The position numbers and the translations under genes are program-made. From a virus (Duplodnaviria > Caudoviricetes), in the IMG/VR virus record IMGVR_UViG_3300036987_000543, positions 1 through 59,830 of that record: a stretch of DNA of 59,830 nt; one strand, 5' to 3'. The notes beneath the pieces are model-generated. The model saw nothing but the letters and a program-made list of their open reading frames with translations, did not search any database and was not told the origin of the DNA. Numbering within the stretch: the stretch's first letter is position 1; every line of letters starts with the position of its first letter. Positions 20,448 to 40,000 of this stretch are shown in pieces.

Positions 20448-20687
20448 ATGGGCAAGCAACAGCGAAAAATCTATCACGTTGAGTTTAAAGGCACCGGCAG
20501 GCATTACTACTTCGGTAGTGTTGCTGCAATATATGACCGGTTTTCAGAGCAGGAAATAGGAATCTTACTTACGAACCTTTACTATGATCATGACTTTGAC
20601 CTGGGCCCTTATCAGAACGATAGGGTTATAATTCGGTTCGGATACTTGATAACCAAGGAAGGGGAGAGGGGGAGGAAGATTAAGTAA
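20448..20687 (+). CDS. Hypothetical phage protein
   Basis: KIYHVEF...HYYFGSVAAIYD pattern resembling small Bacteroides phage proteins. Confidence 0.65.
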   Translation: MGKQQRKIYHVEFKGTGRHYYFGSVAAIYDRFSEQEIGILLTNLYYDHDFDLGPYQNDRVIIRFGYLITKEGERGRKIK

Positions 20688-23380: not shown

Positions 23381-25359
23381 AAAAAACTTAGTTTCTCCTT
23401 TTTGGCAAATTCAGCAAAGGCCTCAGCAATTCCATCTTTAGTAAGTCCATCGTGGTTGAAAAGATCGTGCTTCACGATTAGGTGATCGTGGCTATCCAAA
23501 AATGGCGTGCCATCACCATTAAGTAGGTATATTTTATCTCCACTGTTATCTTTGCTTGGTTCTTGCATAGTCGCAAAGAAAATTGGATAGTCATCAACCT
23601 TAGGGCAGAGTTTTTCATCCCATTTTTGAACAAATAATACGCTTGTTTTGGTTCCAGTGTGAGGTTTAAAAACGTTTCCGTGCAACCCAACAACCGCCAA
23701 GATTCGACAACGTTCAGCAATGAATTCTCTTATTTGCTTATCACTACTATTGTTAAACCTGCCTTGTGGCAAAACAATTGCCATTCTCCCACCTGGTTTT
23801 AAAAAATCGAGATTGCGCTCAATGAAGAGTATGTCCCTTCCAACTTTAGCTTGATACTTGCCATTAGAGTTTTTGCCAAGTTCATACTTAGCAAGAATTC
23901 TACTTTCTTTTATGTCACCAGCGAATGGTGGATTGGCCATTAAGATATCAAAGCTAAAATCCCTATTACTCTTTTTGTCTAACCTGAGTTTCTTAAGTTT
24001 TTTCCATCCCTCACTATAAATATCTAACCAATCTTCATCGTCTTTAGTTTTTTCATCCCAACGTTCCCAATCCAAGGTGTTTAAATGAAGAACGTTTGTC
24101 TGCCCATCGCCAGCAATCAAGTTTAATGTGCGTCCGACCCTTACAGCTTTTTCATCGAAATCAATTGCAAACACCTTGTCCTGTACATAGTCAATACAGC
24201 GGGGAGGCTTATTCTCTAAGGTAAATAGGTGGCTCTTATCCAATCCCTCATCTTTCAAAATCTGCTCCCAAACATGAAAGATGGCATGAACAGGGAAGCC
24301 GCAACTACCAGATGCGGTATCAATCAATGTTTCGCTTTCCTTTGGATTCAGCATTTTCACTGCCATATCTATTACATGCCGAGGAGTGAAATACTGTCCC
24401 TTTTCACCTTTACTGCTTTGATTTATAAGATATTCAAAAGCCTCATCAACTACATCAAGATTGGAATTAAATAGTTTAACATCTTGCAATGAGGAAACAC
24501 AAACTGACAAATGAGAAGGTGTTAACATTATTTTTGAGTCAGACGAGAAAACACCTTCCCATTTGTTTTTAGCTTGATCAAAAAGTCGTTGCAGTTTGGC
24601 TTTTAATTCAGTTTCAGTATCACCATAGTTTCTGAATTCAAGGTGACGGGTATGGTTTCTTCCGCCCTCCATTTCATCATACAACTTTGTGAAAATTAGC
24701 TTAAACAGTTCTTCAAAAACATCTACCCCTGCGTTAGCAAGTACCTCGTCTTCCATTTCAAGGATAAGGTCTTTTAATGATTTTTTCTCTGTTACCAATT
24801 TGTCTTTTTGCACTAAGTCAATGATTGTCCACCTTTCACCCAGGATATCAGACAACTTCTGATCGGCTCGTGGTACATTGGGGATATCTTCAAAGTAATT
24901 TGGATCTTTCCTATGATAAAATGAGATCGATTCGCCATTGCTCCAGATACCTATTGGGGCTCCTGTAGCATTACAATAAGATTTTAGTTGCTCTTTGCCG
25001 TCTTTCAGCTTTGGCTTCTTCAATTCAACCATTATGTAGGGCGAAGTGATTTTGTCTTTATCAAATACAACTATATCAGCTCGCTTTTTTTCTCTACCGA
25101 ATGAAACATTATATTCAAACTCAATTCTTTGTTTCGGATAGTTTAAATCAAAGATGAGGACCATAGCGTATAGTTGCCTGACAATTTCTTCTGGAGTTAG
25201 CTTAATTTCCTTATTCCGAACAATACACTTCACATAAGGGATGCTCTTCTTGTCTTTTGTGTCTCTAATAAAGACTGCGTCCTGTAATAGTTGAATCTTA
25301 TCTAAACTGAACTGGCCAAGCTTATAGCTAGAGTCCTTAAGGATTTCTGAAAGTTTCAT
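23377..25359 (-). CDS. Fused endonuclease-methyltransferase subunit (HsdR_N-type PD-(D/E)xK plus N6-MTase; type IIB/IIG, BcgI alpha-like)
   Basis: PEEIVRQ...RADIVVFD...VELKKP nuclease; GQYFTPR, DTASGSCGF (motif I) and ANPPF (motif IV). Confidence 0.88.
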   Translation of the reverse strand: MKLSEILKDSSYKLGQFSLDKIQLLQDAVFIRDTKDKKSIPYVKCIVRNKEIKLTPEEIVRQLYAMVLIFDLNYPKQRIEFEYNVSFGREKKRADIVVFDKDKITSPYIMVELKKPKLKDGKEQLKSYCNATGAPIGIWSNGESISFYHRKDPNYFEDIPNVPRADQKLSDILGERWTIIDLVQKDKLVTEKKSLKDLILEMEDEVLANAGVDVFEELFKLIFTKLYDEMEGGRNHTRHLEFRNYGDTETELKAKLQRLFDQAKNKWEGVFSSDSKIMLTPSHLSVCVSSLQDVKLFNSNLDVVDEAFEYLINQSSKGEKGQYFTPRHVIDMAVKMLNPKESETLIDTASGSCGFPVHAIFHVWEQILKDEGLDKSHLFTLENKPPRCIDYVQDKVFAIDFDEKAVRVGRTLNLIAGDGQTNVLHLNTLDWERWDEKTKDDEDWLDIYSEGWKKLKKLRLDKKSNRDFSFDILMANPPFAGDIKESRILAKYELGKNSNGKYQAKVGRDILFIERNLDFLKPGGRMAIVLPQGRFNNSSDKQIREFIAERCRILAVVGLHGNVFKPHTGTKTSVLFVQKWDEKLCPKVDDYPIFFATMQEPSKDNSGDKIYLLNGDGTPFLDSHDHLIVKHDLFNHDGLTKDGIAEAFAEFAKKEKLSFF

Positions 25360-25518: not shown

Positions 25519-26568
25519 TTACACACGGGCAAAGATAGGGTTATCCTTTATGAAGTATGGTAAAGTGCCCTTACCCTTCGCTGAATTGTAGCGTTGTTTG
25601 TTGTCTTTCAGCCACTTTTTGAACCCGTCCGGAACGCTAATAACCTTCCTCTGGCTCTCAATTTCTCCCTCTCCATCAAGTAACCTCTGCTGCATATTCT
25701 CAAACTCATCATCAGTCGGAAGTATGGCCACAACATGACACCGGCACTGTGGATGCCAGCCATTAAAGACAAACTCCTTCGGGTACCTACCTTTCAGATC
25801 ATCACAGATATCCACCACCGGATGATTGTTACTTAGTCTTACCTCAAATCCAACAATGAACGGGAGCTGTTGCCAGCGTTTGTGATCTGCTGTCCTGTAG
25901 GCCATATTGGTTTCAGTCCGGGTTAACCGCATAGCGTTCTTGTAGCTTGACCTGTAAACACCTTGCCCGGGATGATAAGCTTTCGCATTCTTTGAGAGCT
26001 GAAGTACGCCCCTGTGGTCCCGTACTCTCCGGTAAAGCCTTTCCGGTTCGTTGAGGTACTTACGGATATCACGCGACAATCCTGCAGCAGATCTTCCATC
26101 TGCAATACCGATATCTATAGCCATCTCCATCTCCTGGCGAAACTGCCCGACATAGTTCCAAACCCTCTTACTGATATTCAGCCCATCCATGCCGGTCTTT
26201 CTGGCAATAAATGCATCCCTGGCAGCCAGGTTTCGCTGAAGGTAAGCCTGTGGCACTTTGCCGATCTTCTTCAGTTTGAAAACACGTTCAGCACGGTTGT
26301 CATTGGTAAGGTTGGCTTCAGCCCATTCTTTCTCGATACCTTTTATGACAGTTCCTGAGACATCACCATAGAGCTTCTCGAAGATCTTTTTTGCCTCTTT
26401 ATTGAGCTTCGGATAGTCCGAGAACCTAAAGGGCACATCAGGATCGATATCCGCTTCGCTGACAAGGGCAATCAATCTCCTGATGGCTGCCATATAAGCA
26501 AGTCGTGTCTTGTTTGCGTGTGCCTCAGTCCGGTGGAACAGGGCGCTGTTCTTATCAAGATCGTACAT
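25519..26568 (-). CDS. Minor head protein (MuF / SPP1 gp7-like)
   Basis: NAMRLTRTETNMAY, ICDDLKG and HPQCRC motifs; follows the portal gene. Confidence 0.88.
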   Translation of the reverse strand: MYDLDKNSALFHRTEAHANKTRLAYMAAIRRLIALVSEADIDPDVPFRFSDYPKLNKEAKKIFEKLYGDVSGTVIKGIEKEWAEANLTNDNRAERVFKLKKIGKVPQAYLQRNLAARDAFIARKTGMDGLNISKRVWNYVGQFRQEMEMAIDIGIADGRSAAGLSRDIRKYLNEPERLYRRVRDHRGVLQLSKNAKAYHPGQGVYRSSYKNAMRLTRTETNMAYRTADHKRWQQLPFIVGFEVRLSNNHPVVDICDDLKGRYPKEFVFNGWHPQCRCHVVAILPTDDEFENMQQRLLDGEGEIESQRKVISVPDGFKKWLKDNKQRYNSAKGKGTLPYFIKDNPIFARV

Positions 26569-26570: not shown

Positions 26571-27983
26571 TCAGAAGCCTTGTTCAAACACATCACCACT
26601 TGTTTCTCTCTTACGCTGTCTCTCTGCCTCAATCCGGGAAGTTTCCGAAGTGCTGTCGCTGATAAGTGGATTGAGTTCCCGGCCGGTTTCCTCGCTCATC
26701 ATCCCTGCATCAATAGAGCTGACAAGGTTGGTGATCATTTCGGCAATATCTTCATTGAAAGGACTCTGGAACTGAGCATCAATAATCAGTTTGGAGCATT
26801 GATCTTTGAGCCTGATGTCAATTACGTTTGCTATGGCAGCGATCAACAAACTGATAAACCGGTCAACAAGTTCGTCATGGGACTCTTTATGCTTGTTCGC
26901 TTTGATCTCCGCCAAAATCATCATTTGTTTGAGCGCCTTTCCGGAAACATTGCTCAGGGCTTTCATGTTCTCAAAGTCAATGTTAGGGGTAAAGGTCTTG
27001 CTCAGAATGTGCTTCTGCAGGTAATCAATCTCCTGTTTCTTCAGCTCTGGCGCGGAGTCAATAGTCAGGTAGCTTACATCACTGTCTTTGCCATCCATGA
27101 TGAATATCTTGCCTGGTTCTTCTTTCTCCGGAATGTTCTTGATTACATCCGCTGTTGCCTTAACTGCCGGGGAAGCGAAATAGTCATTTACATCCGCCGT
27201 AAGGCTTGCAATCCATTCTTCCCTTTTGATCAAAGGCTCTACACCCTCATGCTCTTTCTCCTGCCGGAAGTATATCACAGGAATTTTACCGATCAGGTTT
27301 TCTTCTTCCACTACGCTCCATCCCATATCTTCTTTCTTGCACCGGTATATCTTCTGTTTCATATAAACATCAAAGTAGTATGTAGTATATCCACCTTCAT
27401 TGATGTAATATCCATGTCCAAAGGCTACCATCCGATTCCAACGATCAAACATTGGTTTGATTTCGTCCCCTAAGCTTTTACCAAGCACTTTGATCAAAGC
27501 ATCAGGCTTGTTGCCTTCTTCGTCCTTGAAAACATGCAGCAGTAAGGCGCTTTCTGTTTCGGCCCCTGCAATACGTTTGCATTGACGTATCCGGCTGTCA
27601 AACCTTGTGGATTTAATAAGGTCCTTGAATTTTGAGAAGGCCTCTTCTGTACCTTCGGAGACCATCGAAAATTTCACAGGCTGGCCATAAAGAAACACCA
27701 GGGCAATCTCATTGATAAATCGTTGGTATGGAATAGGAAGTTTCCACTGTTTCTGTAAACGGATCGTCCTCCCTTCCTTATCCTTGATGATCTTGTCCGG
27801 CCGAGACATAATCTCATGGGATATTACGTCATACTCTTTGATGGCTTTGTCGACATCTGCAGATCGATCCTGCATCTTTCGGATGACATTGTCGATATCC
27901 TTGTTTTTGAGAAGCTCCTCAAATCCCTGTTGCATATTCAGGGCATGGTTCATTTTGTTTAACAGTACTCTTATCAGGTTCAT
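26571..27983 (-). CDS. Portal protein (SPP1 gp6-like)
   Basis: FLYGQPVK, NLIGKIPVIYF and NVSGKALK motifs; follows the terminase gene. Confidence 0.9.
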   Translation of the reverse strand: MNLIRVLLNKMNHALNMQQGFEELLKNKDIDNVIRKMQDRSADVDKAIKEYDVISHEIMSRPDKIIKDKEGRTIRLQKQWKLPIPYQRFINEIALVFLYGQPVKFSMVSEGTEEAFSKFKDLIKSTRFDSRIRQCKRIAGAETESALLLHVFKDEEGNKPDALIKVLGKSLGDEIKPMFDRWNRMVAFGHGYYINEGGYTTYYFDVYMKQKIYRCKKEDMGWSVVEEENLIGKIPVIYFRQEKEHEGVEPLIKREEWIASLTADVNDYFASPAVKATADVIKNIPEKEEPGKIFIMDGKDSDVSYLTIDSAPELKKQEIDYLQKHILSKTFTPNIDFENMKALSNVSGKALKQMMILAEIKANKHKESHDELVDRFISLLIAAIANVIDIRLKDQCSKLIIDAQFQSPFNEDIAEMITNLVSSIDAGMMSEETGRELNPLISDSTSETSRIEAERQRKRETSGDVFEQGF

Positions 27984-27995: not shown

Positions 27996-29468
27996 TTAAA
28001 GAAATCCGAGTGAAGTTTTATCAAGATTTTTGGGCAAGTCTATCTTGCCGCTTATGTAATAATCAATTGCATAGCATAATAAGTCTACATACTCATCATG
28101 TGTTTTCAATGGGAAGCCGCATACCTCATCAATGAATGATTCGTTCCAGTCGCCTTCTACAAGATACACCCGGCCACATTCAACCGAAGGGGAAGCAGCG
28201 TTTAGCCTGGTCTCTTTGCTGTCCGATGGGGAAGGGGTTTCAGTAACATTTAGCTTGGTTTCACGCTTGAGCTGTTGTATGACACTTTTTCCATTGGCTT
28301 TTGGTTCAATCCTAAGGGTTGATCGTGAATCGTAATTGTTTCCGCTTAGGTAACCCGGCAGGAACTTGATCAGGTCTGGAAACTCCTTGTATAGCTTTCT
28401 GGCGTCAAATATGAATAGGGCATTGTTGACGTATGTAGTGGCAATAATGCCTGAGGGGTCATTGTCTGACTTTTTCTTCTTTTCGTCATATGCTGTGTCG
28501 AGGAAGAAATGTACCGGTGCCCGGCCACGAATGGCCATGAACTGAGCCAGTGATATCTTTCTAAACCATTCCTCTTTGATGATGTTTCCACCCTCTACAG
28601 TCGGGGACTGGTCATATTGCCCGGCATATCCTTTACTGCCAAGGTCCACCTTTGCTTCATCAAGCACTTTTCGAGACAACCTTACCGGATCGAGCAGACC
28701 ATCTATGTATCTCTCCTTCAATTCCGGAGGCTTGACGTTCTCTGAAGCTTCGGCCGGCAGACAGATATGCCGGATATTTTCTGTTTTCTTTTTGAGTAGA
28801 TATCCGGTTGGATCGTCCTCATGCAGTCGCTGCATGATGGTAACCACAGGGGTATTTTCCTTGTTTACCTTACGTGATGACAGGGTTTTGGTATGATTGT
28901 TGGCTGCTAGCCTGAGACTGTCAGAGGTAGCTTGTTTTGGGTTCAGTGGGTCGTCATTAATGATAACATGTCCGTGCTTGCCGGTAATTGTACCACCTGT
29001 TGAGGTTGAGTATCTGGCCCCTGTCTTAGTGTTTTCATAGCTCCCTTTCGCTGATTTGTCAATTCTGATTTTTACCTCTGGGAACAGCAGCTTATACCTG
29101 TCACTGGTAATGATGTCCTTTGATTTGGAAGCGTGATCAATAGAAAGGTCTGCCGAATATGAATTTGTGATGATTCTCAGGGCCGGGTCTTGTGTCCATA
29201 GCCAGGCTGGCCACATCACCGTGACGATGGTTGACTTGGTGGTACCCGGGGGAATGTTTATGATGATGTCATATGGTTTGGGCTTACGTGCTACAATGGA
29301 TTTTGAAAGCTCCTGTAGTTCCTGGCATAGGTACTCAATATGCCAGTTATAGACCGGTTCTTCTTTGATGATGACTTCCCAGAAAGTCCTTACAAAGTAG
29401 AAGAAGTCTTTTCTGCATTCACTTGCCTGTACACTTAGCGCCATTCTGATAACATTATCCGTTAACAT
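27996..29468 (-). CDS. terL: Terminase large subunit
   Basis: INIPPGTTKS Walker A variant, INDDP, IMQRLHEDD, and nuclease motifs FLDTA...IEPKANG...HDEYVD. Confidence 0.93.
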   Translation of the reverse strand: MLTDNVIRMALSVQASECRKDFFYFVRTFWEVIIKEEPVYNWHIEYLCQELQELSKSIVARKPKPYDIIINIPPGTTKSTIVTVMWPAWLWTQDPALRIITNSYSADLSIDHASKSKDIITSDRYKLLFPEVKIRIDKSAKGSYENTKTGARYSTSTGGTITGKHGHVIINDDPLNPKQATSDSLRLAANNHTKTLSSRKVNKENTPVVTIMQRLHEDDPTGYLLKKKTENIRHICLPAEASENVKPPELKERYIDGLLDPVRLSRKVLDEAKVDLGSKGYAGQYDQSPTVEGGNIIKEEWFRKISLAQFMAIRGRAPVHFFLDTAYDEKKKKSDNDPSGIIATTYVNNALFIFDARKLYKEFPDLIKFLPGYLSGNNYDSRSTLRIEPKANGKSVIQQLKRETKLNVTETPSPSDSKETRLNAASPSVECGRVYLVEGDWNESFIDEVCGFPLKTHDEYVDLLCYAIDYYISGKIDLPKNLDKTSLGFL

Positions 29469-29868
29469 TGAGACTTTCTGCTATTTTGAGCAATAGTTTC
29501 CTTTCTTCTTCTCCCAGCGTACTTGTGTCTACATCCATTGCAATTGGGGATCCATTAATGCCGCCTATCTCATGCCGTTCACTGTACCCTCGGTTCTTTC
29601 CTTTCGTTTTGAGGTAGAAGATTATAGCTGTTGTGTCCTCATTCTTGATTTTCTTCAGTAGTGCGGCCTCGGCCACATCAATCTGAAGTTCCTGTATATC
29701 CTCGGCCTTGCGTTTAAATTCCGGATCCTCTTTGCACCAATTGTAATAAGTGACCCTGCTGATGCCGGCCTTCTCACAGGCGTATGCGACAATTCCGGAA
29801 GTCTCCCGGAGACAGTCAAGCAGCTTTGCCTTTTTCTTCTTTTTCGATAGCCTTTCACCTTGCCTCAT
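29455..29868 (-). CDS. terS: Terminase small subunit (HTH)
   Basis: ACEKAGISRVTYYNW HTH and TAIIFYLKTKGKNRGY; overlaps terL. Confidence 0.85.
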   Translation of the reverse strand: MRQGERLSKKKKKAKLLDCLRETSGIVAYACEKAGISRVTYYNWCKEDPEFKRKAEDIQELQIDVAEAALLKKIKNEDTTAIIFYLKTKGKNRGYSERHEIGGINGSPIAMDVDTSTLGEEERKLLLKIAESLNVNG

Positions 29869-30937
29869 CGGGATAGTCTTTAGAATCCTCTAAAAGCTTC
29901 CCGGTTACAACCCTCACAGTCCTGTTCTTTGGGTCTCCAGCTATTAATATTTGATAAATCCTCCGGCATGTGTCTGATGTTGTTTTTGGGCTTACACGGG
30001 CGAATAACTTCTTCACCTGTTTGTACCCGGGGTATTGGTCTGGGTGTTGGGATGCCTTCTTTAATTCCTCCCTTAAGATTACACGATAGTCTTTGTCAAT
30101 ACTGAAATTATCATCCTGTCGAGAAGACCGGAACATATCCGTGTCCCAATAGAGCATTACAAGGTCTGCATTGGGCTCTCTCTTTACAATCTTCTCAAAT
30201 AGGTTTGGGTAAAACTCGAGTACCTTTGGAAGGGTCTTAATGGTGTCAATGCTGAAAAATTGACTGATGCGCAGTTTGTTAACCGGCACGCCTGTTTTGT
30301 AGAGGTACAGGTAAGTCTCCGGAAACTTCAGGTTGTTTCTCTCAATATAAAGCCATACGTCATTGTCTCTCCAGTCATAGATAGGGTAGAGGAACTTTGA
30401 CTTATGTTGACCGGCAATTGATTGCCTTCTTTGGACAGACTCATAGACTCTAAGGCCAACCATCTGGTAAATATTCTGAAACAGGTACTTTGAAAAAGCC
30501 TGGTAAGTCATACCAAGTGAGAAGTCCTTGTGATGTCTGATAGCGAATTTGGGCATAGGACGAATCCACAGATCTTCCTTGCCAGGTTCCCAACAAATGA
30601 AGCTCTCGTCATTCTCCAGACGGTTGCAGCAATTGTAATGCTTGATCGGCAGACAGAACCAGTAGAACTTTGCTCCCAGAGATAGAAACAGGGACCGCCA
30701 CTCTATAACGATCTGTTCAAAATCCGGGTAAATACCTTCTTCATCATAGAAAACAACAATTAACCTGCTGAAGTCAATGTTATACTTCTGCATGGTTTTG
30801 ATAACAATATCAGCCATGCAAATAGAGTCCTTTCCACCGGAGAAGGACATGCTTATGTACTTGTGCTTATTGAAGGATTCCAGAACCCTTCTCTCAGCTG
30901 CAGTTACAACATCAACATCGAGCGTTTTCGTTTTCAT
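29855..30937 (-). CDS. PAPS-reductase-family PP-loop adenylating enzyme (IbrA/DndC-like)
   Basis: SFSGGKDS PP-loop, FYWFCLP, VGLRVYESVQRR and YPIYDWRDNDVW; overlaps terS by 14 nt. Confidence 0.88.
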   Translation of the reverse strand: MKTKTLDVDVVTAAERRVLESFNKHKYISMSFSGGKDSICMADIVIKTMQKYNIDFSRLIVVFYDEEGIYPDFEQIVIEWRSLFLSLGAKFYWFCLPIKHYNCCNRLENDESFICWEPGKEDLWIRPMPKFAIRHHKDFSLGMTYQAFSKYLFQNIYQMVGLRVYESVQRRQSIAGQHKSKFLYPIYDWRDNDVWLYIERNNLKFPETYLYLYKTGVPVNKLRISQFFSIDTIKTLPKVLEFYPNLFEKIVKREPNADLVMLYWDTDMFRSSRQDDNFSIDKDYRVILREELKKASQHPDQYPGYKQVKKLFARVSPKTTSDTCRRIYQILIAGDPKNRTVRVVTGKLLEDSKDYPDEAR

Positions 30938-31455
30938 TGATACCTCCTCAGAACCTCTGCCTTATTGAATGTTTGGCGTTTGATAACTGTTTTCAGGAAT
31001 GTCTCCCTGTCAATCTTTGACAGCCGGAAGATCTCCTCACGGCTCATTCCGATCTCTTTTGAAATTTCATCCACCGTCTTGCCTTTGTCGAGCAATGACT
31101 TGACTATGTTCTCCATGGGTTCAAGAAGATGTGTTCCCCGGGCCCGGTTAAAGGTGACCGTACCGTACATGTTCTTACTTTCGTCCTCATGGGCCACAAT
31201 GACAACAGGTATTTTGCCACCTAGTATTGTTTTCAGAGGCTCTCTTCCGGAGACAAGCCAGCGATGGAACCCGTCAATGATTGTGTAATCAGGACGAATT
31301 ACGATAGGGAAACAGAAGCCGTTGGTAAGTATGGATTGCATCAAAAGCTTGAGGTTTTTCTCAAGAACTTTGTTAGGGTTGTAGTCATTAGGACGAATCA
31401 ATTCCCTGTTAATGAATTGCATCTCCCTGAGTGGCTTAAATAGGTCTTTTTCCAT
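30934..31455 (-). CDS. ParB/Srx-domain protein (IbrB-like)
   Basis: PNDYNPN, IIDGFHRW and TVTFNRARGTH, plus a C-terminal HTH; likely start MEKDLF at 31455. Confidence 0.88.
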   Translation of the reverse strand: MEKDLFKPLREMQFINRELIRPNDYNPNKVLEKNLKLLMQSILTNGFCFPIVIRPDYTIIDGFHRWLVSGREPLKTILGGKIPVVIVAHEDESKNMYGTVTFNRARGTHLLEPMENIVKSLLDKGKTVDEISKEIGMSREEIFRLSKIDRETFLKTVIKRQTFNKAEVLRRYQ

Positions 31456-31457
31456 GA

Positions 31458-32036
31458 TCAGAAATTGATTAGTTGTCCGCAGTGTGGGCATGTCATTGTC
31501 CTTACTCCGCTCATTCCGGCTTCGATGTTTTCAAACTGTGCATCAACAGCGGCTTCATGTTCCGGAGTGAAGTTGTCGCCTCTTTGCGGTGGCTTTGTGA
31601 AGTCAACCCCCATATTGTCTGGCGATATCTCATTGATGATCGTGTCGAGGTACTCAGGGGAAAAGCCGATGATATCCAGTTCCCCGATCTGCTTGATGAT
31701 CTTCTCAACCTCCGTGAAGTTCACATAACTCATTGACTGAATCTTGTTGTCTTCAATGAGAAGCTTCATCTTTTGCTTTTCAGTGAGGCCTCGTATGATG
31801 GTTACCTTGGCTGTTTTCTCTCCCTTTTTCTCAAGGGCCAGACGTTTACCATGGCCACAGAGTATCTGATAATCTTCATCACAGATGATCGGATAATACT
31901 GACCGTATCTTTCCATGCTCTGTACCAGAGCATCAATTTGGGCGTGTGTATGTGTGTTGGGATTTCCAGGGAAGTCCTTGAGAAGAGACAGGTTAAGGGT
32001 TGTTTCTTCATGTTTTACTTTAGCTTGCTTTGCCAT
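31458..32036 (-). CDS. ParB/Srx N-terminal-domain protein with C-terminal CPHCG zinc-ribbon half
   Basis: NPNTH, YPIICDEDYQILCGHGKRLAL and IEDNK; likely start MAKQAK at 32036. Confidence 0.82.
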   Translation of the reverse strand: MAKQAKVKHEETTLNLSLLKDFPGNPNTHTHAQIDALVQSMERYGQYYPIICDEDYQILCGHGKRLALEKKGEKTAKVTIIRGLTEKQKMKLLIEDNKIQSMSYVNFTEVEKIIKQIGELDIIGFSPEYLDTIINEISPDNMGVDFTKPPQRGDNFTPEHEAAVDAQFENIEAGMSGVRTMTCPHCGQLINF

Positions 32037-32829
32037 GATTTTGGAGTATTGATTTTGCTTCGTTGAAATAATCTGCTGCAATGTGTAATGTCTCCGGACT
32101 GATTTGGTAAAGCAGTTCCCAGGAATGTTCGCGGCCAAGGCTTGAAGTCTGAACCGGCCAGACCCCGGTGCCGTTTATCCATCCTTGAGGATCATCATAG
32201 ATTGGTGGAAGATTCCTGTTCTTGTAATAGTGGCATACTGCCAACACATGTTCATGCTTCCAGTGTGCGATAGGTGAAAAGCGGGTTACACCAGACTTAT
32301 CGGTGTATATGTTCTGGCCACCGGAACCGGTATAATTGCCGTCCTGATGTCTGCGGCCAAGACAAATAATGTCAAGACTGGCATTTTTGTAGAAATCCTT
32401 TTGTGCTGCATGCTGAATGAGAGAGTACCAGGTTGCAAGATGCTTTGAATCCTCAGGAAATACCATATGGGGGTTTTGAAGCAGCCATTGATATCCAATG
32501 TTGGCATCCCATGTGACAAGTCCCGCGGGTTTGTTCAGGTGAATCCAACTCAGGTAGTGAGGATATTCCAGAGCCTGAGACAAGCCAATAACACAACTTC
32601 TGATTCCGGAGAGCTCACAGACGACCTGTAGGGCGATGCTGTCTTTTCCACCAGACCAGGCATAACCTGCTTTCTTGTTAGCGGTTTTTGATCTGATTGT
32701 TAAAACAGCATCAGCAACGAGGCTTTCAATATGGTCACGGGAAACAACCTTTTCGATGTTATCCCAAAGCCTTTGAAAAGCCTCATTGCTGGCAGTTTGT
32801 TTTCTGCCTGGTGTCAGGACTTTTTGCAT
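32020..32829 (-). CDS. Second PAPS-reductase-family PP-loop enzyme
   Basis: AWSGGKDS, LGRRHQDGN and FSPIAHWKHEHVLA; the ATG at 32829 overlaps the upstream stop (TGATG). Confidence 0.82.
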   Translation of the reverse strand: MQKVLTPGRKQTASNEAFQRLWDNIEKVVSRDHIESLVADAVLTIRSKTANKKAGYAWSGGKDSIALQVVCELSGIRSCVIGLSQALEYPHYLSWIHLNKPAGLVTWDANIGYQWLLQNPHMVFPEDSKHLATWYSLIQHAAQKDFYKNASLDIICLGRRHQDGNYTGSGGQNIYTDKSGVTRFSPIAHWKHEHVLAVCHYYKNRNLPPIYDDPQGWINGTGVWPVQTSSLGREHSWELLYQISPETLHIAADYFNEAKSILQNHGKAS

Positions 32830-33428
32830 CAGATATGTATCGCTGTTGAAAGAGTGAATGAATCTGTGCCGGAATCGTACCTGAATTGTAACCATGACAG
32901 GTTAGTTAGTTTCACACGGGCATTGGTTACAAATCCTGGTCGGTCCCTGATCGAGTAACCGGCATTAACGATGAGATGTTTCCATGCATAACCCGCGAGG
33001 ATCTGTAATCGGTCATTGATTAAAAACCCGTCACTGCGGTATAGGTTATCCCATGTGAAGTCAACCATATAGCTTTTGAGTTTGACTGTTCCGGAAACCG
33101 TCTCGCTGAATGATTCTGTCTTGAGGTCATAAATTGACCTGAAGAGCAGGTAATACTTCTGCTGATAGTTCACGTTTAGCCAAAGCTGAGGGATAGCCGC
33201 TTCTCGGTTGAAGTTGTACTGGAGTACCGGTGTAAATGATATCCATTCGGCAGGTTGCACCTTGTAACCCACAAATGGGGAAGCGGAAAGCGATCCCGGG
33301 GCATTTACAGAGGTTGTCAATGGCAGCCAGTATCTGAACCTTGTCGGTTGCGTGATACCATCATAAACCTGCCCGGATAGGCTGACTGTCGCAAGCAGGA
33401 TCATCAGAATTGAAAAGAACCTTTTCAT
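32829..33428 (-). CDS. Secreted, probably outer-membrane beta-barrel protein
   Basis: Sec signal peptide with G|Q cleavage (Bacteroidetes N-terminal Gln rule); alternating aromatic/hydrophobic strands throughout. Confidence 0.55.
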   Translation of the reverse strand: MKRFFSILMILLATVSLSGQVYDGITQPTRFRYWLPLTTSVNAPGSLSASPFVGYKVQPAEWISFTPVLQYNFNREAAIPQLWLNVNYQQKYYLLFRSIYDLKTESFSETVSGTVKLKSYMVDFTWDNLYRSDGFLINDRLQILAGYAWKHLIVNAGYSIRDRPGFVTNARVKLTNLSWLQFRYDSGTDSFTLSTAIHI

Positions 33429-33736
33429 GTTTGAATAGAATTTAGGTGATTGAAACTTTTAATGATCTTGCGTAATGCGTTCCTGGCGTTGAGTGCCGTG
33501 ACGTAGATCGTGTCAGGTTCCTGGAAAGCTCTTTTGGTTTCTTTCTTTTGCCCTTTGACGTCAATCATCACCTGTGATTGAACTTCAACCTTTTTCAGGT
33601 GTGTTGTCTTAGTGTTAAAGGCAAAGAGACTGTGGCCGGGTTTGAGCCTTATCCGCCCCAGATGCTTGAATTCTTTTTGGGTCTCTGCAACAAGCTGTGT
33701 ATCGGGTTTGACCCTGGTTGGTTCAAAGTCGTACAT
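33425..33736 (-). CDS. Hypothetical phage protein
   Basis: ORF abutting or overlapping both neighbours. Confidence 0.65.
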   Translation of the reverse strand: MYDFEPTRVKPDTQLVAETQKEFKHLGRIRLKPGHSLFAFNTKTTHLKKVEVQSQVMIDVKGQKKETKRAFQEPDTIYVTALNARNALRKIIKSFNHLNSIQT

Positions 33737-33737
33737 A

Positions 33738-34007
33738 TCAGTTTTGGTGGATTGGTAAATTAGGTTTTTCGAAAAAGACCGTTTCTTCAGCTGACATCCA
33801 TACTGGTGGTTGTGTCTGACCGGACACTACAGAAAGCCATATACGGCCTGTTCGCTTAACCTTTTCGATTTCTTCTGGAGATAGCTCCCAGCATGAAATA
33901 CATTGTTTGCCATCGGTAAAGACAGGCAGGGGAGAGCATTCATCCTCTGACATGCCTGGCGGTGGCCCAAGCTGTTGGTTCTGCTCTTTAAACTTTACTG
34001 GTTTCAT
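33738..34007 (-). CDS. Hypothetical phage protein
   Basis: CSPLPV...ISCWELSPEE...GRIWLSV...QPPV pattern; overlaps the symporter stop. Confidence 0.7.
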   Translation of the reverse strand: MKPVKFKEQNQQLGPPPGMSEDECSPLPVFTDGKQCISCWELSPEEIEKVKRTGRIWLSVVSGQTQPPVWMSAEETVFFEKPNLPIHQN

Positions 34008-35394
34008 CTTTCACAGTGATTGAGATGATTCCAGAGGCAAGGATGGTGAAGAGTGAGCCGGTGACGATAAGGACTGTGTTGGCGGAGAAGTTTCCAATGG
34101 CGAAAATTGGTAGGCCAATGACCATGCTTGTAAGTAAGCCATAGAACAGACCTCTTTCGCTCATTCGGATGCCTTTGATGGCAAAGGCTGTCGGTAGCAT
34201 TACCGAGGCTCTCAGTGTGCCATAGATAAGAAAAAGGTGGAGGATCTTCAGTCCGGGAATGTTTGCGATCAGTATGGCCAGTACAGTTACATATACCATT
34301 GACCATTTAGCAAACTCCACTTCTGAGATTAGATCGAGTTTTCTGATTCTGTTGTATAGGTCATGACCAGTGACAGACGAAACAGCACATATGATGCTGT
34401 CCACTGTTGAGATAAGCCCCGAAAGGATCATCACCATGAACAAGTACAAGAACCAGTTAGGGGCAAAGGCAATCACAGCCCCTACATTTACAAGTTGTGT
34501 GTCCTGAATATCCAAACCTTTACCAGCTGCAAAGAACCCAAAGACGGCTAAGGAAATGGGTACGCAGGCAAATATTACAGCTGCCCAAAGGAATGCTTTT
34601 TTAACCTGTCCCTGCTTGATAGCAAATACACGTTGCCAGAACATCTGGTCACCGAAAGTGCCGGACAGTAGGCCTATTGTAGTGGGGATGCCAAATGCAA
34701 GGGTGACGGCCAGACCTTTGCCGGAGAACATGCCTTGGATATCACCGGCCTTTCCGGATAATCCCTCAATAAGTGTCTCCATGCCACCACCATTTATAAA
34801 CATGAAAGGCAAACCGAGTAACAACACTATCAATATCCATAGCATCTGCCAGTAGTCGGTAATGATACTTGCCCGGAGACCTTTTGCAAAAGTGTAAATC
34901 AGAGGAATGATCGCAAGTAGTATTGTAGTCAGCATAAAAGGTAGTCCGGTAATCTTCCACATGATGGTTGCCCCGGCAAGTAGCTGTACTGCCAGGCTAA
35001 GTGTCTGCAGCCCGAAACTCTCAATCAGGTATAGGTTATGGGTACGGTTACTGTACTTGCTCCGGATATAGTCAGAGAATGTCCATCCATCCGGATATTT
35101 TTTCCTCATCCATGTTGCAAAGTAGGCAAAGATCACAAGGGTAAGCACGTTAGGGACCACAAACCAAAATACGCCTACCCATCCTGATGTGAAGGCTTTC
35201 TCTGAGGCAACAAACATTGAAGGAGCCCATACCCATGTGGCAGCAAGTGAAAAGGCAGCCATCCATCCGGGGATAGACCTGTTTGCAAGTAGGTAATCAA
35301 GCTTCGTTGAACTCTTTCTTCCGATCATCCGAGTGATAAAAAAAACGGCCACGAAATAGGCGAGGATGAGCAGAAATCCTGTCGATTGTTCCAT
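33988..35394 (-). CDS. Sodium:solute symporter (SSS/SLC5; DUR3/PutP-like)
   Basis: About 13 TM segments; DYLLANRS, SLAATWVWA, TFSDYIRSKY, GLRASIITD, DQMFWQRVFA and ISTVDSII motifs. Confidence 0.88.
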   Translation of the reverse strand: MEQSTGFLLILAYFVAVFFITRMIGRKSSTKLDYLLANRSIPGWMAAFSLAATWVWAPSMFVASEKAFTSGWVGVFWFVVPNVLTLVIFAYFATWMRKKYPDGWTFSDYIRSKYSNRTHNLYLIESFGLQTLSLAVQLLAGATIMWKITGLPFMLTTILLAIIPLIYTFAKGLRASIITDYWQMLWILIVLLLGLPFMFINGGGMETLIEGLSGKAGDIQGMFSGKGLAVTLAFGIPTTIGLLSGTFGDQMFWQRVFAIKQGQVKKAFLWAAVIFACVPISLAVFGFFAAGKGLDIQDTQLVNVGAVIAFAPNWFLYLFMVMILSGLISTVDSIICAVSSVTGHDLYNRIRKLDLISEVEFAKWSMVYVTVLAILIANIPGLKILHLFLIYGTLRASVMLPTAFAIKGIRMSERGLFYGLLTSMVIGLPIFAIGNFSANTVLIVTGSLFTILASGIISITVKDETSKV

Positions 35395-35415
35395 GTCTTT
35401 TTATAGTGTTAAAGG

Positions 35416-35456
35416 TGTAAAAATCAAGGTAAAATTATATGTCCCTGTGATAGACA
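35416..35456 (-). promoter_or_regulatory. Putative phage late promoter, copy B (upstream of the symporter-to-portal operon)
   Basis: Minus strand TGTCTATCACAGGGACATATA-N10-GATTTTTACA; 18/21 identical to copy A, plus the shared ATTTTTACA at the same spacing. Confidence 0.65.
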
Positions 35457-35519: not shown

Positions 35520-35554
35520 AAAAAAAACCGAACTACAGTATTGCAGTTTCAGTT
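35520..35554 (-). terminator. Rho-independent terminator just upstream of late promoter B
   Basis: AACTGAAACTGCA-ATAC-TGTAGTTCGGTT stem (one bulge, G-U pairs) followed by a T-run. Confidence 0.6.
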
Positions 35555-35749
35555 AATTAACACGGAAAAACTGTGATAAGGGTGAGATAAAAGGGGAGAT
35601 TAGCGGGTAAGTTTACACGGGTTTTAGGATCGTTTCAGATAGGTATCGGATAAGGTTGAAAAAATGATGCTGATGTTTAACCTGGATTGATAAAATTTAT
35701 ATTTTCGGTGAAATATTTTGTTTCGTCAAATGAAATAATTACATTCAGT

Positions 35750-36766
35750 ATGTCACAGTTCTTAGTCTCTATTAATGACGAACCGTCAATTCTTGACAAA
35801 AAAGATTCTAAAAAATGGATCAGTAGTGTTGAGTTCTACAGCACTATACTTGTCTTAGGTGGTTTAGGTATTTTGCTCTACACATATAGTCTTAGTTATA
35901 ATTGTAAGCTTGAGGGTGAAGATCGAGGTCAGTTCGGTGATTTTGTCGGTGGTGTTGTGGGATCAATGTGGGCCTTAGCAGGAGTGATTCTTTTTTATGC
36001 TGCTCTAAAACAACAAAGAATTGACAATAAGGATAATAACAGAGCAATACAAGAGCAGAATAGAAGTTCCAGACAACAAATAAACGCACTCAGAGCACAA
36101 ATCAGTGTAATGAGTAGGTCAAATGATTTGATAGCAAAGCAATTATCGACACAAAATAAACAACAATTTGAAGCGACGTTCTTCAGTTCTTTGAGATTTC
36201 ATGAAGCTAATGTGATAAACATTAATTATCAGAGGAAAATTAGCAACCCTTTTGAATATGAAATTTCAAAAAGTACTGTTCCATGGGCTCGTCGAGATTT
36301 TGAACCATATCTTGGTCGAGAGTCATTTCAACCTTTGTACTCTGAGTATAAGTACAAATTCCAGTCAACTAGGGACAACAAAAACAATGAAAAATCAGCT
36401 TCAGGAGATGACAAAAATACCTCTAATAATATTCAAACTAATTTATTAGCAGTAGTAAACGAAAGTTATCTTGATTTTTTTAGAGAACATCAGGCATCAT
36501 TAGGTCATTACTTCAGAACTATCTACCAAATAGTAAAACTGGTTGATAACTATGGGGGTGAAGACGCAAAATACTATACTAACTTTTTAAGGGCGCAATT
36601 TTCAACCTATGAACACATTCTGCTTTTTTACAATTGCCTAAGCGATATGGGGAGAGAAAGATTCCATCCATTAATTATTAAGTATCAGCTACTTAATAAT
36701 CTAAACAAAAAAGAACTAATTCACGAATCTCACATAGAGCTCTACCCTAAAAAAGCATACGAGTAG
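35750..36766 (+). CDS. Putative abortive-infection protein (putAbiC-like) with two N-terminal TMs
   Basis: GQFGDFVGG TM region; LGHYFRTIYQIVK...YTNFLRAQFSTYEHILLFYNCL signature; AT-rich. Likely ATG at 35750 (the ORF extends to 35687). Confidence 0.78.
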   Translation: MSQFLVSINDEPSILDKKDSKKWISSVEFYSTILVLGGLGILLYTYSLSYNCKLEGEDRGQFGDFVGGVVGSMWALAGVILFYAALKQQRIDNKDNNRAIQEQNRSSRQQINALRAQISVMSRSNDLIAKQLSTQNKQQFEATFFSSLRFHEANVININYQRKISNPFEYEISKSTVPWARRDFEPYLGRESFQPLYSEYKYKFQSTRDNKNNEKSASGDDKNTSNNIQTNLLAVVNESYLDFFREHQASLGHYFRTIYQIVKLVDNYGGEDAKYYTNFLRAQFSTYEHILLFYNCLSDMGRERFHPLIIKYQLLNNLNKKELIHESHIELYPKKAYE

Positions 36767-37026: not shown

Positions 37027-40000
37027 TTAGTGAACGATTAGTTTTTGGGATTGTACTGTAGAGCCACTGATAAGCGAAACAATGTAAACGCCCGGTGAAA
37101 GGTATGTTTGAAAAGAGTGTGTGTTCATTCCTTTCGGCAAAGAGAATCTGTTTATGAGCTGTCCGGATGGAGTAAAGATAGATAAGAGGCCGGAATTAAC
37201 TGGATCGGACTGGCTAATGACGAGACTGCCGTTTAGGTAGTAACACGAATAACTTGTTGGAGAATCAGGCTCGGAAATACCTATGCTGCCGCCAAAGACA
37301 ATTAAGAAACGGTCTTGTTCGTCGGAAATATCTGCGGAGAAGATGAATGGAGCAGAAAGCAGAAGGTTGTGGGAAAGGTTGGTTTTAGTATCGACAAGTG
37401 TTGCTGTGGTCAGAGGATCGAAACCGAAAATAAAAGGAGCAGAAATAGAGTGTTGGCCGGAAATGCCTGGCTGAAGTGAAAGAGGAATGGATTTGGCAGA
37501 GGGAAGGCCGGGGAAATGGATTGAGTGCTTTTCCTGACTATGCTGAATCCAAAGATTGGGTGCAGTCGGATCTATGCTTTGCATCTTTCCGGTACCTGAG
37601 ATAATACCTGAGTCGTTGAACTGAATGAGGACTTCATCAGAGAAGTTATTTGGAGAAGATACATGAAGCTTCAGGGTTGGGAATGTGACGCTGTCGGATT
37701 TGAGAAAAACAGGGTTTTGTTGGACTCGGATATTATTGTTCATCGAGAGGCTGCCTGATGAGGCAGCGCGGACAAAAAAACCTTGTCCTGCTGGGATGTA
37801 ACGTGAGGTGCTGTTTGTGCCATCGTTGCTGACAAGACTTGAATTGTAGGTACCATAATTGCCTGCGGCTTCGTTGTAGACCCAAAAATCGTATCCACCT
37901 GAGTTCTGCTGCAGAGAAGTGCGGCCCCAGCCGGATGAAGCTTTCCAGTCAATAGCCGAAACGTAAGGGTTGCCGATGAGGTTGAAGCCCTGATAAGTGG
38001 GGTTGGAAGCGTCGGCGGTGATATCAACGGAGATAGGGCCATTGTTGAGCAGGCCGGTGAAATCTTTGGTGGGAGTGGCTTGGTTGTAAGCAACCATGTA
38101 GCCGCGACCGGGGACAAAATCGGGGCCGTTGACCTCCATGAAGGTGGGGCTTGAGGTGATGTTTTTGTAGTTGACCCAGGTGACAGAGGGTTCATCGTAA
38201 CAATAAAGATCGTAGCCGGCAACAGGGATAAAATCGGAGTCGGATATGGATTGAGAAACGGGGGATGAAAGCAGGTGATAATCCCAGACATTGCCGGGGA
38301 TGTAGCGTTGAACTGTGGCAGGGACGTTGTCGGTGTTGTGAGAAAACATGCCTGAACCATTGGCATCAGAAGCAATTGTGAAGCTTGACACGCCAGCCTG
38401 ATTGGAAACAGAGCCTTGAACAGTTAAGCTGATACCAGGGTTGATGGTGAGGCTTTCGCCGGAATTGATGCCCAGATTTAGCAGTGTGCCTGACTGATTT
38501 ATGATTGAGGAGCTTGACAAGGTGAATGAATAATTTGGAAGAGTTTGGATGCTGTTACTGGTGGCCCAGTTAGCAGGGTTGGCAATAAGGCTTTTGAGCA
38601 CAGAGGGAGTGCCAGAGGTGATGTTGTTATAATATCCATTATCTTGACTTACTGAAAGGGCATTGACATTGTCAGTTAGGGTTGAGGGAAGATATGAAGT
38701 GTTTGCGGAGGCAGAGCCCGAGGTGAGCCATGCAGAGTTATCTAAGTTTAGAGCAAAAATGACGGTTTGGTCAGAGTTCCATGTGCCTTGGTAGGCTATG
38801 AGTTGATCGCCTGAGGCAGAGAGGAGAAAGTTAGAAGGACTATTTGAATTGAAACCAGTGCCGGTGATGTCCATTGAGTTGGTCCATGTGATAACAGTTC
38901 CGGCAGGAATAACAGATGGTGCAGTGTAGGTTAGAAAGCCCTCACCGGTTCGCGGTGTGGTAGCTGATGAAAAGCCATTATCCGTGAAATTTATGACTGT
39001 GCCGCTAGCCAGCTGTGAAAAGTTGATAAAGGTGAACTTGTCAGGATCATCGGTCTGATATTGAATAATAGCTATGTCGCCGGGTTGAAGAACGGTGGAA
39101 CCTTCGGTGGTAGCTATTGTAGACTGAGGGATGGAGCCATCGGTTTTGTAATCAATGAGGGATCCGGAATTGGTGTAGGGGAATATTTTGAAATAATGAG
39201 TGGTGCTTGAGGCAAGGCCGGTGAAGGTGTAGGACTGAGCGCCGTAGGAGACGTTTTTGGCAAGAGGGCCATCGCTAACAGGTGTGCCATCAATGGGGGC
39301 AAAAATGGCATCGTAGCTTACTGTGCTGCCCAGGATGAGGTAGCCTGCCGGAAGGGTGGGGCCGGAGGCGTCTGACCATGTTAGGTTTATAGAGGCATAA
39401 ACCGGAGAGCCAGCTGAAGATGCAAAGGCTGTGGCGTGGTTGGAAGGCTCGGCGACGGCGCCTGATGGGAACCAGACCTGATCAACATAATCCGGATTGT
39501 CAATAAATGGATTGCGGTTGCTCTGAATGGCATAAATGGCATTGTTCCGATCAATTTCCTTTTGAGAGACTGGATCGGCGGAGTGCCAGGCATAGAGAAG
39601 ATTGAGAAACCAGGTTTCGAAAGATGGGTAGTCAGTTTCATTAAGTATCGCATCGGCATAGGTGCTGTTGGGTGACCAGGAATCTATTACGTTGCGGTAG
39701 CGGGTGGACATGTAGAAATAGGCACGGGCTATGTCTCCCTTGTACTCATCAATAGGTTCGAAGGCTGTGCCGGAGTATCCCGGATAACTGGATGGACCGC
39801 GCTTAGAACCATTTTGGGAGGTGTAGGCAGGGGAAGCAACAGTTGAAAAAGGATAGTTGCTGTGGCCGGTGCCGTTGACATACTGATCAACAGGGAAGAT
39901 GTGGTGAATATCGGTGTACATAGGTGAGGCGCCTGCAAAGTAACTTGATGGGAAACTATGCTCGCGGGAATAACAATCTCCTTCCTGGGTGGAGATGCCG

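Follow-up and report, generated by a model that had tools for sequence, protein, structure and literature searches.

A provirus recorded in IMG/VR (IMGVR_UViG_3300036987_000543), 59,830 bases long and referred to in its entirety as the window, carries directly before its terminase genes a cassette in which a Na+:solute symporter family protein (SSS) and a secreted barrel protein are joined to two PP-loop enzymes (PP1 and PP2), two ParB/Srx-like proteins (ParB1 and ParB2) and two small open reading frames (ORFs; o89 and o103). With a probability of roughly 0.45, we read this set as a late-expressed DNA-modification module, the donor or precursor of which is taken up from outside by way of the symporter, joined in diderm hosts by an additional pore. 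The core would consist of PP2, as an ATP-activating PP-loop enzyme, with ParB2 and ParB1, and one lineage would have gained SSS (along with the barrel in diderm Bacteroidota) and usually PP1. Late in infection, pore and symporter would take in a small external metabolite; the PP-loop enzymes would use ATP to adenylate, and thereby activate, a carboxylate- or oxyanion-type group; the ParB proteins would carry this chemistry to phage DNA; and the DNA would be covalently modified before or during packaging, as a protection against host restriction. Within this chain, we infer when the genes are expressed, in which direction transport runs, and what the substrate and the reaction are, as well as DNA as the target, to which analogy with known systems points. 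That the transporter functionally belongs to the cassette is very probable. The more specific proposal, that a private two-membrane uptake route (porin and symporter in diderms, symporter alone in monoderms) feeds an IbrA/IbrB-type machine and leads to an undescribed covalent modification of phage DNA, we consider rather unlikely as a whole.

The eight cassette genes all lie on the minus strand, from 35394 to 29855, and run into the genes for the small and large terminase subunits (terS and terL), the portal and a MuF-like protein. SSS (33988-35394; 468 amino acids, aa) is the first gene of the operon and is followed by o89 (33738-34007) and o103 (33425-33736), both of which were present in the closest relatives only (4 of 80 loci), then by the barrel (32829-33428; 199 aa), PP1 (32020-32829; 269 aa), ParB1 (31458-32033; 191 aa from an ATG at 32033), ParB2 (30934-31491; 185 aa, or 173 aa from a second ATG) and PP2 (29855-30937; 360 aa). 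Altogether, twelve minus-strand genes succeed each other between 35394 and 25519, with junctions that are either overlaps of 1-34 nucleotides (nt) or gaps of at most 12 nt. An earlier note, made from this DNA alone, had described an abutting or overlapping eight-gene run from SSS into terS/terL, portal and MuF, and the gene coordinates agree with it.

The association of these genes extended well beyond the window. Among 80 relatives retrieved from IMG/VR via the SSS protein, the barrel was present in 78, PP1 in 65, ParB1 in 68, ParB2 in 69, PP2 in 73, and terS and terL in 74 each. The two SSS loci without a barrel comprised one that stops right after SSS (L041) and one deletion variant (L069). 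When considering the 74 of these loci that had at least 6 kb after SSS, we found the barrel in 73, PP1 in 63, ParB1 in 65, ParB2 in 66, PP2 in 73 (a count that includes remnants), and terS and terL in 71 each, with all four enzyme and ParB genes together in 61. Since the loci found through SSS in IMG/VR share the terminase of the window, they count as one phage lineage.

The cassette was also located in phages of a different kind. In the gut-phage record MT836198.1, the SSS is 41% identical and the overlapping genes have the order SSS-PP1-ParB1-PP2-ParB2, with no barrel. The same order was present in 40 Clostridia-type viral contigs, 35 of which had SSS; four of the other five start within or after PP1, and the fifth (L113) had no SSS match even though there is space for the gene upstream. 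None of these 40 contigs had a barrel, or a terS/terL like that of the window, and all four genes followed SSS in 23 of 23 Clostridia-type viral loci. Additionally, 80 genome contigs from Oscillospiraceae, Lachnospiraceae, Anaerotruncus, and other Clostridia, with GC contents of 0.34-0.62, carried the cassette, and the barrel was found in none of them. In the 68 Clostridia genome loci with at least 4.5 kb after SSS, PP1 was present in 62, ParB1 in 68, and ParB2 and PP2 in 67 each. Anaerotruncus colihominis DSM 17241 has the cassette directly before terS/terL of other families (phrog_57 and phrog_15, as opposed to phrog_38 in the window). The survey of gene neighborhoods for co-occurrence of SSS, barrel, PP-loop and ParB genes therefore revealed linkage in both related and unrelated phages, contrary to the lack of consistent linkage that the earlier note had named as refuting its idea.

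The barrel followed the envelope type of the host. It was seen only together with SSS and only in Bacteroidota. In a survey anchored on PP1, all 9 Bacteroidota genome loci with SSS had it, as opposed to 0 of 46 SSS-bearing Bacillota loci, while the SSS-less Bacteroidota cassettes of Riemerella phage vB_RanS_PJN03 and of contig L281 had none. This distribution is consistent with a need for passage through an outer membrane, without proving it, and the independent barrel events are few because the loci are related. The two-membrane import route proposed in the earlier note fits a barrel that tracks diderm hosts.

All cassette genes are under purifying selection comparable to that on terL. In a comparison with a 95%-identical relative (L001), the ratio of nonsynonymous to synonymous substitution rates (dN/dS) was 0.038 for SSS, 0.075 for the barrel, 0.050 for PP1, 0.034 for ParB1, 0.010 for ParB2 and 0.026 for PP2; values ranged from 0.010 to 0.139 across all eight genes and were 0.033 for terL and 0.040 for the portal. 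The eight genes form a conserved unit.

In a phylogenetic reconstruction of PP2 with 108 rows, all 83 SSS-bearing rows were placed in one clade of 95 (Shimodaira-Hasegawa-like approximate likelihood ratio support 99), which splits into a Bacteroidota half, with PJN03 nested within it, and a Bacillota half. The presence of SSS changes at least 6-8 times on this tree, versus about 23 times for shuffled labels, in a reconstruction made with a quick search method that has some long branches and in which a few of the rows scored as lacking SSS are truncated loci. L281, which is binned as Bacteroidota and has PP1-ParB1-PP2-ParB2 without SSS, was placed inside the Bacillota half.

We also pursued the origin of SSS. 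Two host genomes had no SSS copy beyond that of the prophage itself, and just one of 151 Bacteroidales genomes had a close homologue, the next-best chromosomal SSS proteins being at most 27% identical. As judged from these sequence comparisons, SSS is not a captured host gene, because the two hosts hold the prophage copy only, close cellular homologues are all but missing in the genomes searched, and SSS-bearing cassettes fall into a single clade in the PP2 tree. One Bacteroides version of SSS was recorded on at least 1000 contigs.

SSS matches its family over the full length (PF00474, E 2e-31, 109.6 bits vs a cut-off of 22.8; residues 34-422 on profile positions 1-405) and belongs to a phage-specific subfamily (phrog_20720, E 1e-117). 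With TIGR00813 it scored 131 bits, below the cut-off of 184, and it missed the NCBIfam equivalog cut-offs of PanF (66.6 vs 328), PutP (48.5 vs 515) and ActP (21.1 vs 1099). DUR3 (E 2e-20) and CHT1 (E 8e-14) were the nearest solved chains. Thus, while the full-length PF00474 match and these chains make it alike to DUR3, CHT1, PanF and PutP, the SSS of the window differs from characterized transporters in forming a separate phage-borne clade, far under every equivalog cut-off. The DUR3/PutP-type likeness put forward in the earlier note stands for the nearest solved and curated relatives, but a substrate is not thereby named.

The junction between SSS and the barrel varied among relatives. Bacteroides-type SSS proteins (L005-L031, P0013-P0120) are 556-581 aa long with a charged C-terminal extension of about 100 aa, in the place where the window has o89 and o103. 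In two loci (L077, 9992-12298; L215, 4675-6987), one of which is a Prevotella metagenome-assembled genome, SSS, a charged linker of about 90 aa and a barrel with signal peptide occupy a single frame of about 770 aa, which may reflect either an in-frame internal start of the barrel or a fusion from which signal peptidase would free it. A lysis role for SSS and barrel (holin- or spanin-like) was considered and set aside, as SSS is a full member of a transporter family, is strongly constrained by purifying selection and, in monoderm hosts, has no barrel beside it.

The barrel itself had no Pfam (E <= 0.01), NCBIfam or PHROGs family match. Its AlphaFold2 model (predicted local distance difference test score, pLDDT, 85.9) has about 12 long strands, and the best Foldseek matches in the PDB were all outer-membrane barrels, headed by the KdgM porin 4fqe (E 7e-5, TM 0.57/0.64). 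The KdgM chains 4fqe and 4pr7 were the top matches, with TM values of 0.57-0.65 and 6-7% identity in the structural alignment; the KdgM sequence family PF06178 was not matched in the Pfam search. Structural neighbors in the ESM Atlas were Phage_OMP, BcsS and KdgM-like clusters, and viral barrel matches in BFVD were weak. As a predicted fold, the outer-membrane barrel named in the earlier note is well supported, with a model and fold search that agree and no sequence family behind it. KdgM porins and Phage_OMP have the same small fold of about 12 strands, and the barrel of the window likewise has a signal peptide; it differs in its 6% identity to KdgM, in a family-peculiar peptide (QVYDGITQPT) and in its constant adjacency to a phage symporter. 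This peptide forms the mature N-terminus and varied little or not at all among 20 aligned relatives, which also had signal peptides and alternating strand patterns. It corresponds to residues 20-29, which were modeled with low confidence, and could be a plug or docking peptide.

Of the enzymatic components, PP2 and ParB2 had the clearest relatives. PP2 matched the PAPS_reduct family (E 2e-9) and phrog_2302 (E 4e-73), and was 27% identical to Escherichia coli YbdN (BLASTP E 6e-27 over 257 aa); an hhalign comparison aligned the two over 294 columns (probability 99.9%, E 1e-33; YbdN residues 1-316), leaving the last ~90 YbdN residues unaligned. ParB2 has an IbrB/YbdM-like ParB N-terminal domain (PF02195, E 1.5e-7, 31.8 bits vs 26.3; phrog_2159, E 9e-59) and a C-terminal part resembling a helix-turn-helix (HTH), and was 36% identical to E. 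coli YbdM (E 5e-27). The relationship to IbrA/IbrB claimed in the earlier note holds for this pair, by homology of PP2 to YbdN and of ParB2 to YbdM; PP1 and ParB1, when compared, were not homologues of YbdN/YbdM. In 41 ParB2 sequences, D73, G74, H76, R77, N115, A117, R118 and G119 were invariant, and we take the DGxHR-type motif and arginine patch to be the active site of the ParB/Srx fold.

The ParB2 gene overlaps that of PP2 by 4 nt, and the pair was kept in 66 of 74 Bacteroidota-type loci, 23 of 23 Clostridia-type viral loci, and 67 of 68 Clostridia genome loci. A model of the PP2-ParB2 complex scored 0.73 versus 0.01 for the best control, with at least 51% of contacts shared between runs and a partner pLDDT of at least 61. 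Of 80 solved complexes, 58 attained the mark used, as did 2 of 110 mismatched pairs, a calibration that holds roughly, own alignments having been used here. Confident contacts connected ParB2 residues 152-181 with PP2 residues 2-13 and 187-222, along with single contacts at ParB2 127 and PP2 164; hence, the C-terminal tail of ParB2 sits against PP2 in the model, and the ParB/Srx domain is mostly outside the confident contacts. This prediction supports binding between PP2 and ParB2.

PP2 also has a nearly invariant cluster (C95, H100, C103 and C115) that is partly kept in other IbrA-like proteins and in YbdN, the latter being without two of the three positions Cys95/Cys103/Cys115. These residues are possible ligands of a metal or an Fe-S cluster. 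At its C-terminus, ParB1 has a CPxCG knuckle that was kept in 99% of 82 sequences, and this knuckle and the PP2 cysteines may perhaps form metal or Fe-S sites shared between the two proteins. The Cys95/103/115 set was tried as a marker of the importer-coupled form and rejected, being present in SSS-less PJN03 and partly in other phages. ParB1 had no Pfam match but belonged to phrog_620 (E 1e-35), and it also matched the N-terminal domain of fusions between ParB and DNA methyltransferases (phrog_498, E 8e-27; PDLC03229 of PADLOC, E 1e-9).

PP1 has an intact SGGKDS motif and matched phrog_424 (E 1e-11), while its match to PAPS_reduct was sub-threshold (18.9 bits vs 22.5). Sequence profiles against the PDB gave E-values of 0.01-0.8, so that a fold search was needed; in this, the model (pLDDT 95.7) resembled PAPS (3'-phosphoadenosine 5'-phosphosulfate) reductases, which were the best matches, as well as TtuA, the ATP-pyrophosphatase domain of GMP synthase, FMN adenylyltransferase, and CysD (TM ~0.4-0.6). 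A search for PP1 fusions returned two proteins, both taken as assembly or frame artifacts: one with SSF and PAPS_reduct domains (P0243) reads as a frameshifted SSS running into PP1, and the other (P0244) is PP1 joined to the portal.

The C-terminal Cys of CysH (ECGLH) is catalytic. In E. coli CysH, RECGLHEG forms the C-terminal end and the P-loop is degenerate, whereas PP1 and PP2 have the full SGGKDS PP-loop and no conserved C-terminal Cys. In hhalign comparisons of PP1 and PP2 with CysH and CysD, probabilities were 27-46% (27% for PP1 with CysD), and the CysH matches ended at residues 221 and 209 of 244, before ECGLH. Scores with the NCBIfam models of CysH and CysD fell far short of the cut-offs; that of CysD gave 33.9 bits for PP2, versus a cut-off of 195, and no hit for PP1, and the gene list and family matches of the cassette included no GTPase CysN, CysC or sulfite reductase. 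Because both proteins are without the catalytic cysteine motif of CysH, labeling them as PAPS reductases, and hence as sulfur-related auxiliary metabolic genes (AMGs), appears unlikely to be right. Kinship with DndC, to which the earlier note had appealed, was not recovered: no DndC model of NCBIfam matched PP1 or PP2 at E <= 0.01, and none of the eight genes matched Dnd partners in Pfam, PHROGs, NCBIfam or PADLOC. PADLOC assigned 24 bits to PP2 for BrxP, on the PP-loop, and its defense models had no match for SSS, the barrel, PP1, ParB2, o89 or o103.

The position of the cassette with respect to transcription signals was also considered. A 20-nt sequence, GTCTATCACAGGGACATATA, which is promoter- or operator-like, lies at 35436-35455 on the minus strand, 61 to 42 nt 5' of the SSS start codon. 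The motif GTCTATNNCAGGNACATATA is common to this region and to the capsid operon, where a second copy (18126-18145, minus strand) stands 54 nt before the start codon, and a third, with 2 mismatches, precedes the gene starting at 9290 (9357-9376, minus strand). It was first spotted by eye and then tested against shuffles, with 3 sites in the window and 0 in 100 shuffles, which upholds the shared motif reported in the earlier note; a k-mer search for common upstream words of at least 11 nt yielded nothing useful. Downstream, the operon ends in a strong intrinsic terminator (25497-25466, minus strand; 14-bp stem, -21.8 kcal/mol, z -5.3), as had been claimed. For the terminator claimed upstream, near 35520, there is a hairpin followed by U8 (35520-35554, hairpin 35554-35526, minus strand), but it is weak (-11.9 kcal/mol, z -3.1) and was not reported by the consensus terminator scan. 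This element may shield the operon from upstream transcription.

Comparison with known systems placed the cassette near several of them. The likeness to IbrA/IbrB and YbdN/YbdM lies in the homology of PP2 and ParB2, their adjacent, overlapping genes and their predicted binding. The pair of the window differs from YbdN/YbdM in giving no DUF3440 match and in its Cys95/103/115 set; moreover, its genes belong to a phage late operon that also encodes another ParB protein, another PP-loop enzyme, a symporter and a porin. PJN03, a cultured phage, has the same gene order as the window, with 56% identity for ParB1, 74% for ParB2 and 61% each for PP2 and terL, along with terS, portal and MuF. In Mycobacterium phage Gadjet (gp1/gp4/gp5), a ParB, a PAPS reductase and a ParB lie directly before terL, and in Microcystis phage Mwe-JY13 a ParB/PAPS-reductase/ParB set lies beside recombination genes. 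None of these three phages has a symporter, barrel or PP1, and their genes are annotated by domain name alone. Across the phage collection, PP2 relatives were present in 223 records and SSS in 2.

According to the available text of one study, ParB-superfamily proteins accompany DndC (as DndB) and DpdA (as the ParB-like ATPase DpdB), DNA being the target in both systems (PMC12839542). The cassette resembles Dnd and Dpd in pairing a ParB-superfamily protein with a PP-loop PAPS-reductase-family or base-exchange enzyme acting on DNA; these are, however, host defense systems with a restriction arm, whereas the window has a phage late-operon module with an importer and without genes for DndA/D/E, a tRNA-guanine transglycosylase (TGT) or DpdC. 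In the accessible parts of two reports (bioRxiv 10.1101/2021.01.05.425418; PMC12323421), PAPS-reductase genes of phages are interpreted as cysH/cysD AMGs, among them a DUF3440 clade and many genes of human-associated viruses. The cassette has the same Pfam family (PF01507) and annotation as these viral cysH/cysD AMGs and differs by its missing CysH motif, full PP-loop and obligatory ParB partners. One preprint, as far as its accessible portion goes, lists PAPS reductase and ParBc proteins among candidate defense effectors. In the literature covered, with subscription journals and supplementary tables (which may hold AMG listings) outside that coverage, we came across no account of a transporter or porin linked with ParB/PAPS-reductase genes in phages, and no biochemical function for the IbrA/IbrB (YbdN/YbdM) family. 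The ParB/PAPS-reductase pair itself is already known by name and annotation in many phages.

DNA is proposed as the target because the ParB1 domain occurs in fusions with DNA methyltransferases, because of the analogy with Dnd and Dpd, and because of the place of the cassette before the terminase and the motif it shares with the capsid operon. The idea put forward in the earlier note, that an imported compound is attached to packaged DNA by two ParB-loaded enzymes, is supported in part, namely for the conserved unit, the linkage and the predicted PP2-ParB2 binding, but SSS and PP1 proved facultative, and the trio of ParB1, ParB2 and PP2 occurs without any importer in many phages.

Several observations weigh against modification of DNA with an imported donor. 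Searches of Pfam, NCBIfam and PADLOC identified no DNA-modifying domain (methylase, glycosylase, TGT) in the cassette. None of 46 PP2 relatives, each of which had PAPS_reduct, matched the DUF3440 domain of IbrA/YbdN (E <= 0.1), and E. coli ybdNM is, in the available text on it (PMC9068703), a chromosomal operon repressed by CitR with no known DNA role. The motif GTCTAT..CAGG.ACATATA preceded SSS in just 1 of 77 relatives with enough upstream sequence, which makes it silent on regulation in other phages. With respect to gene content, the trio stands before terS/terL in PJN03 with no SSS, barrel or PP1 alongside; 19 of 74 loci, from Deinococcus, Actinomycetota, Chloroflexota, Chlorobiota, and some Clostridia, combine PP1 with the trio but have no SSS; and L060-L064, like 6 of 68 Clostridia genome loci, have SSS and no PP1. 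Going by these distributions, the trio is an old core that works without an importer in many phages, and since it is found in this state, SSS (with the barrel) and PP1 would be two separate facultative additions. Moreover, because SSS without PP1 and PP1 without SSS both occur, the core cannot depend on the imported compound as an obligatory substrate. In addition, variants with a deletion from half of the barrel through PP2 (L045, L046, L051 and L056) persist in viral contigs, so that the module is dispensable, at least for persistence; L068, L080, L055 and L024 are further natural deletion variants. Finally, a 5.5-kb contig binned as Bacteroidales (L127) has a barrel-less Clostridia-type cassette, 96% identical to copies from Dysosmobacter and Agathobaculum. 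It may be mis-binned and is formally an exception to the association of barrels with diderms; for both L127 and the above-mentioned L281, either mis-binning or cross-phylum transfer would account for the placement.

The structure of the deletion variants can be seen in L046, in which the first half of the barrel runs into the last ~30 residues of PP2, such that PP1, ParB1, ParB2 and most of PP2 are lost and SSS is intact. We rejected the interpretation of L045, L046, L051 and L056 as having an independent SSS and barrel import pair, the alignment indicating a single deletion from mid-barrel to the PP2 tail.

Among alternatives to an imported donor for DNA modification, the best survivor is a small-molecule pathway, in which the importer would supply a precursor that the PP-loop enzymes and ParB/Srx-fold proteins convert to a nucleotide-linked metabolite acting as an anti-defense decoy, a signal, or a cofactor of packaging or assembly. 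We regard this as improbable, yet far from negligible. A dedicated importer suits a metabolic pathway, and the cassette is without a recognizable DNA-modifying domain; the ParB/Srx fold includes small-molecule kinases and NTPases, with a weak SerK hit for ParB2 (E 0.003, far under the cut-off), and the fold neighbors of PP1 include the small-molecule enzymes CysD and FMN adenylyltransferase. However, ParB2 keeps its HTH-like C-terminal part and arginine-rich ParB motif, ParB1-type domains are fused to DNA methyltransferases in other phages, and the cassette keeps its position before terS alongside two unrelated kinds of terminase, which speaks for DNA or packaging.

Further behind, with about the odds of an outsider, is the possibility that the genes are unrelated neighbors, the ParB and PP-loop proteins being packaging or partition accessories (for example in terminase recognition or nicking) and SSS and the barrel being lysogenic-conversion cargo. 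Phages often place cargo at operon ends, and SSS and the barrel are at the 5' edge; the trio occurs without them, and ParB-family proteins can nick DNA, according to the available text of PMC12839542. Yet cargo turns over fast, and SSS has stayed with the cassette across two phyla and two terminase families, co-diverging with PP2. Its dN/dS equals that of terL, it had no close cellular homologue in the genomes searched, and it lies downstream of the capsid-operon motif rather than behind a lysogenic promoter of its own.

Least probable of all is that PP1 and PP2 serve as viral counterparts of CysH and CysD and raise sulfate reduction in the infected host, with symporter and pore supplying a sulfur compound, for although this follows the usual annotation (PHROGs names both phrog_2302 and phrog_424 PAPS reductase) and the best fold matches of PP1, it conflicts with the missing CysH motif, full PP-loops, low hhalign probabilities and NCBIfam scores far under cut-off described above, leaves the two obligatory ParB partners without a role, and lacks the accompanying CysN, CysC and sulfite reductase genes.

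Few "metabolic" genes are reported from gut viromes as often as those resembling PAPS reductases, which are routinely taken for sulfur AMGs, and the cassette argues for another job, carried out with ParB partners. Its importer-coupled form is common, with the Clostridia version represented in Oscillospiraceae, Lachnospiraceae, and further families. It would be unusual for a virus to equip its host late in infection with an outer-membrane pore and an inner-membrane symporter of viral origin, and if modification of DNA with an imported donor is true, it would be the first DNA hypermodification with a virus-imported donor and would provide the first function for the IbrA/IbrB (YbdN/YbdM) family. 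Several cultured lysogens carry the cassette, among them Anaerotruncus colihominis DSM 17241, Acetatifactor muris DSM 23669, Mediterranea massiliensis, Dysosmobacter segnis BX15 and Agathobaculum strains, with a 66%-identical SSS in strains of Bacteroides ovatus, B. xylanisolvens and B. caccae, and PJN03 offers a cultured phage with the core alone.

DNA nearly identical to 29455-35456 was present in DNA runs labeled as coal and groundwater metagenomes, whereas most relatives belong to Bacteroides and Clostridia of the gut, so that phages from outside the gut have the cassette as well. No RNA run was listed among the runs with DNA matching this region.

With respect to the remaining operon genes, all on the minus strand, the names terS (29455-29868; family match), terL (27996-29468; phrog_38) and portal (26571-27983; SPP1 Gp6-like, Pfam) given by the earlier note were confirmed by family matches, while the last gene (25519-26568), which it had called MuF-like, had no Pfam match. 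Between the packaging and capsid operons, at 20680-25359 (minus strand) and 19279-20139 (plus strand), are ORFs for proteins of the N6-methylase/HSDR_N (660 aa), specificity (Methylase_S; 495 aa) and GNAT (410 aa) types and another N6_Mtase ORF; this block looks like an inserted island resembling a restriction-modification system. Just upstream of the cassette is a 1091-aa ORF (37027-40302, minus strand) with an N-terminal Endonuclease I domain (E 3e-78), located where the GC content is high (0.495) and the GC skew strong (0.32). The gene between it and the cassette (35687-36766, plus strand) matched putAbiC (E 8e-22) and AbiP of PADLOC (E 5e-8), and is probably prophage defense cargo. In bacteria, the anticodon of tRNA-Cys is as a rule GCA, and ACA is unusual; the only tRNA gene in the window, at 50725-50800 on the minus strand, was identified by ARAGORN as a tRNA-Cys with the anticodon ACA.

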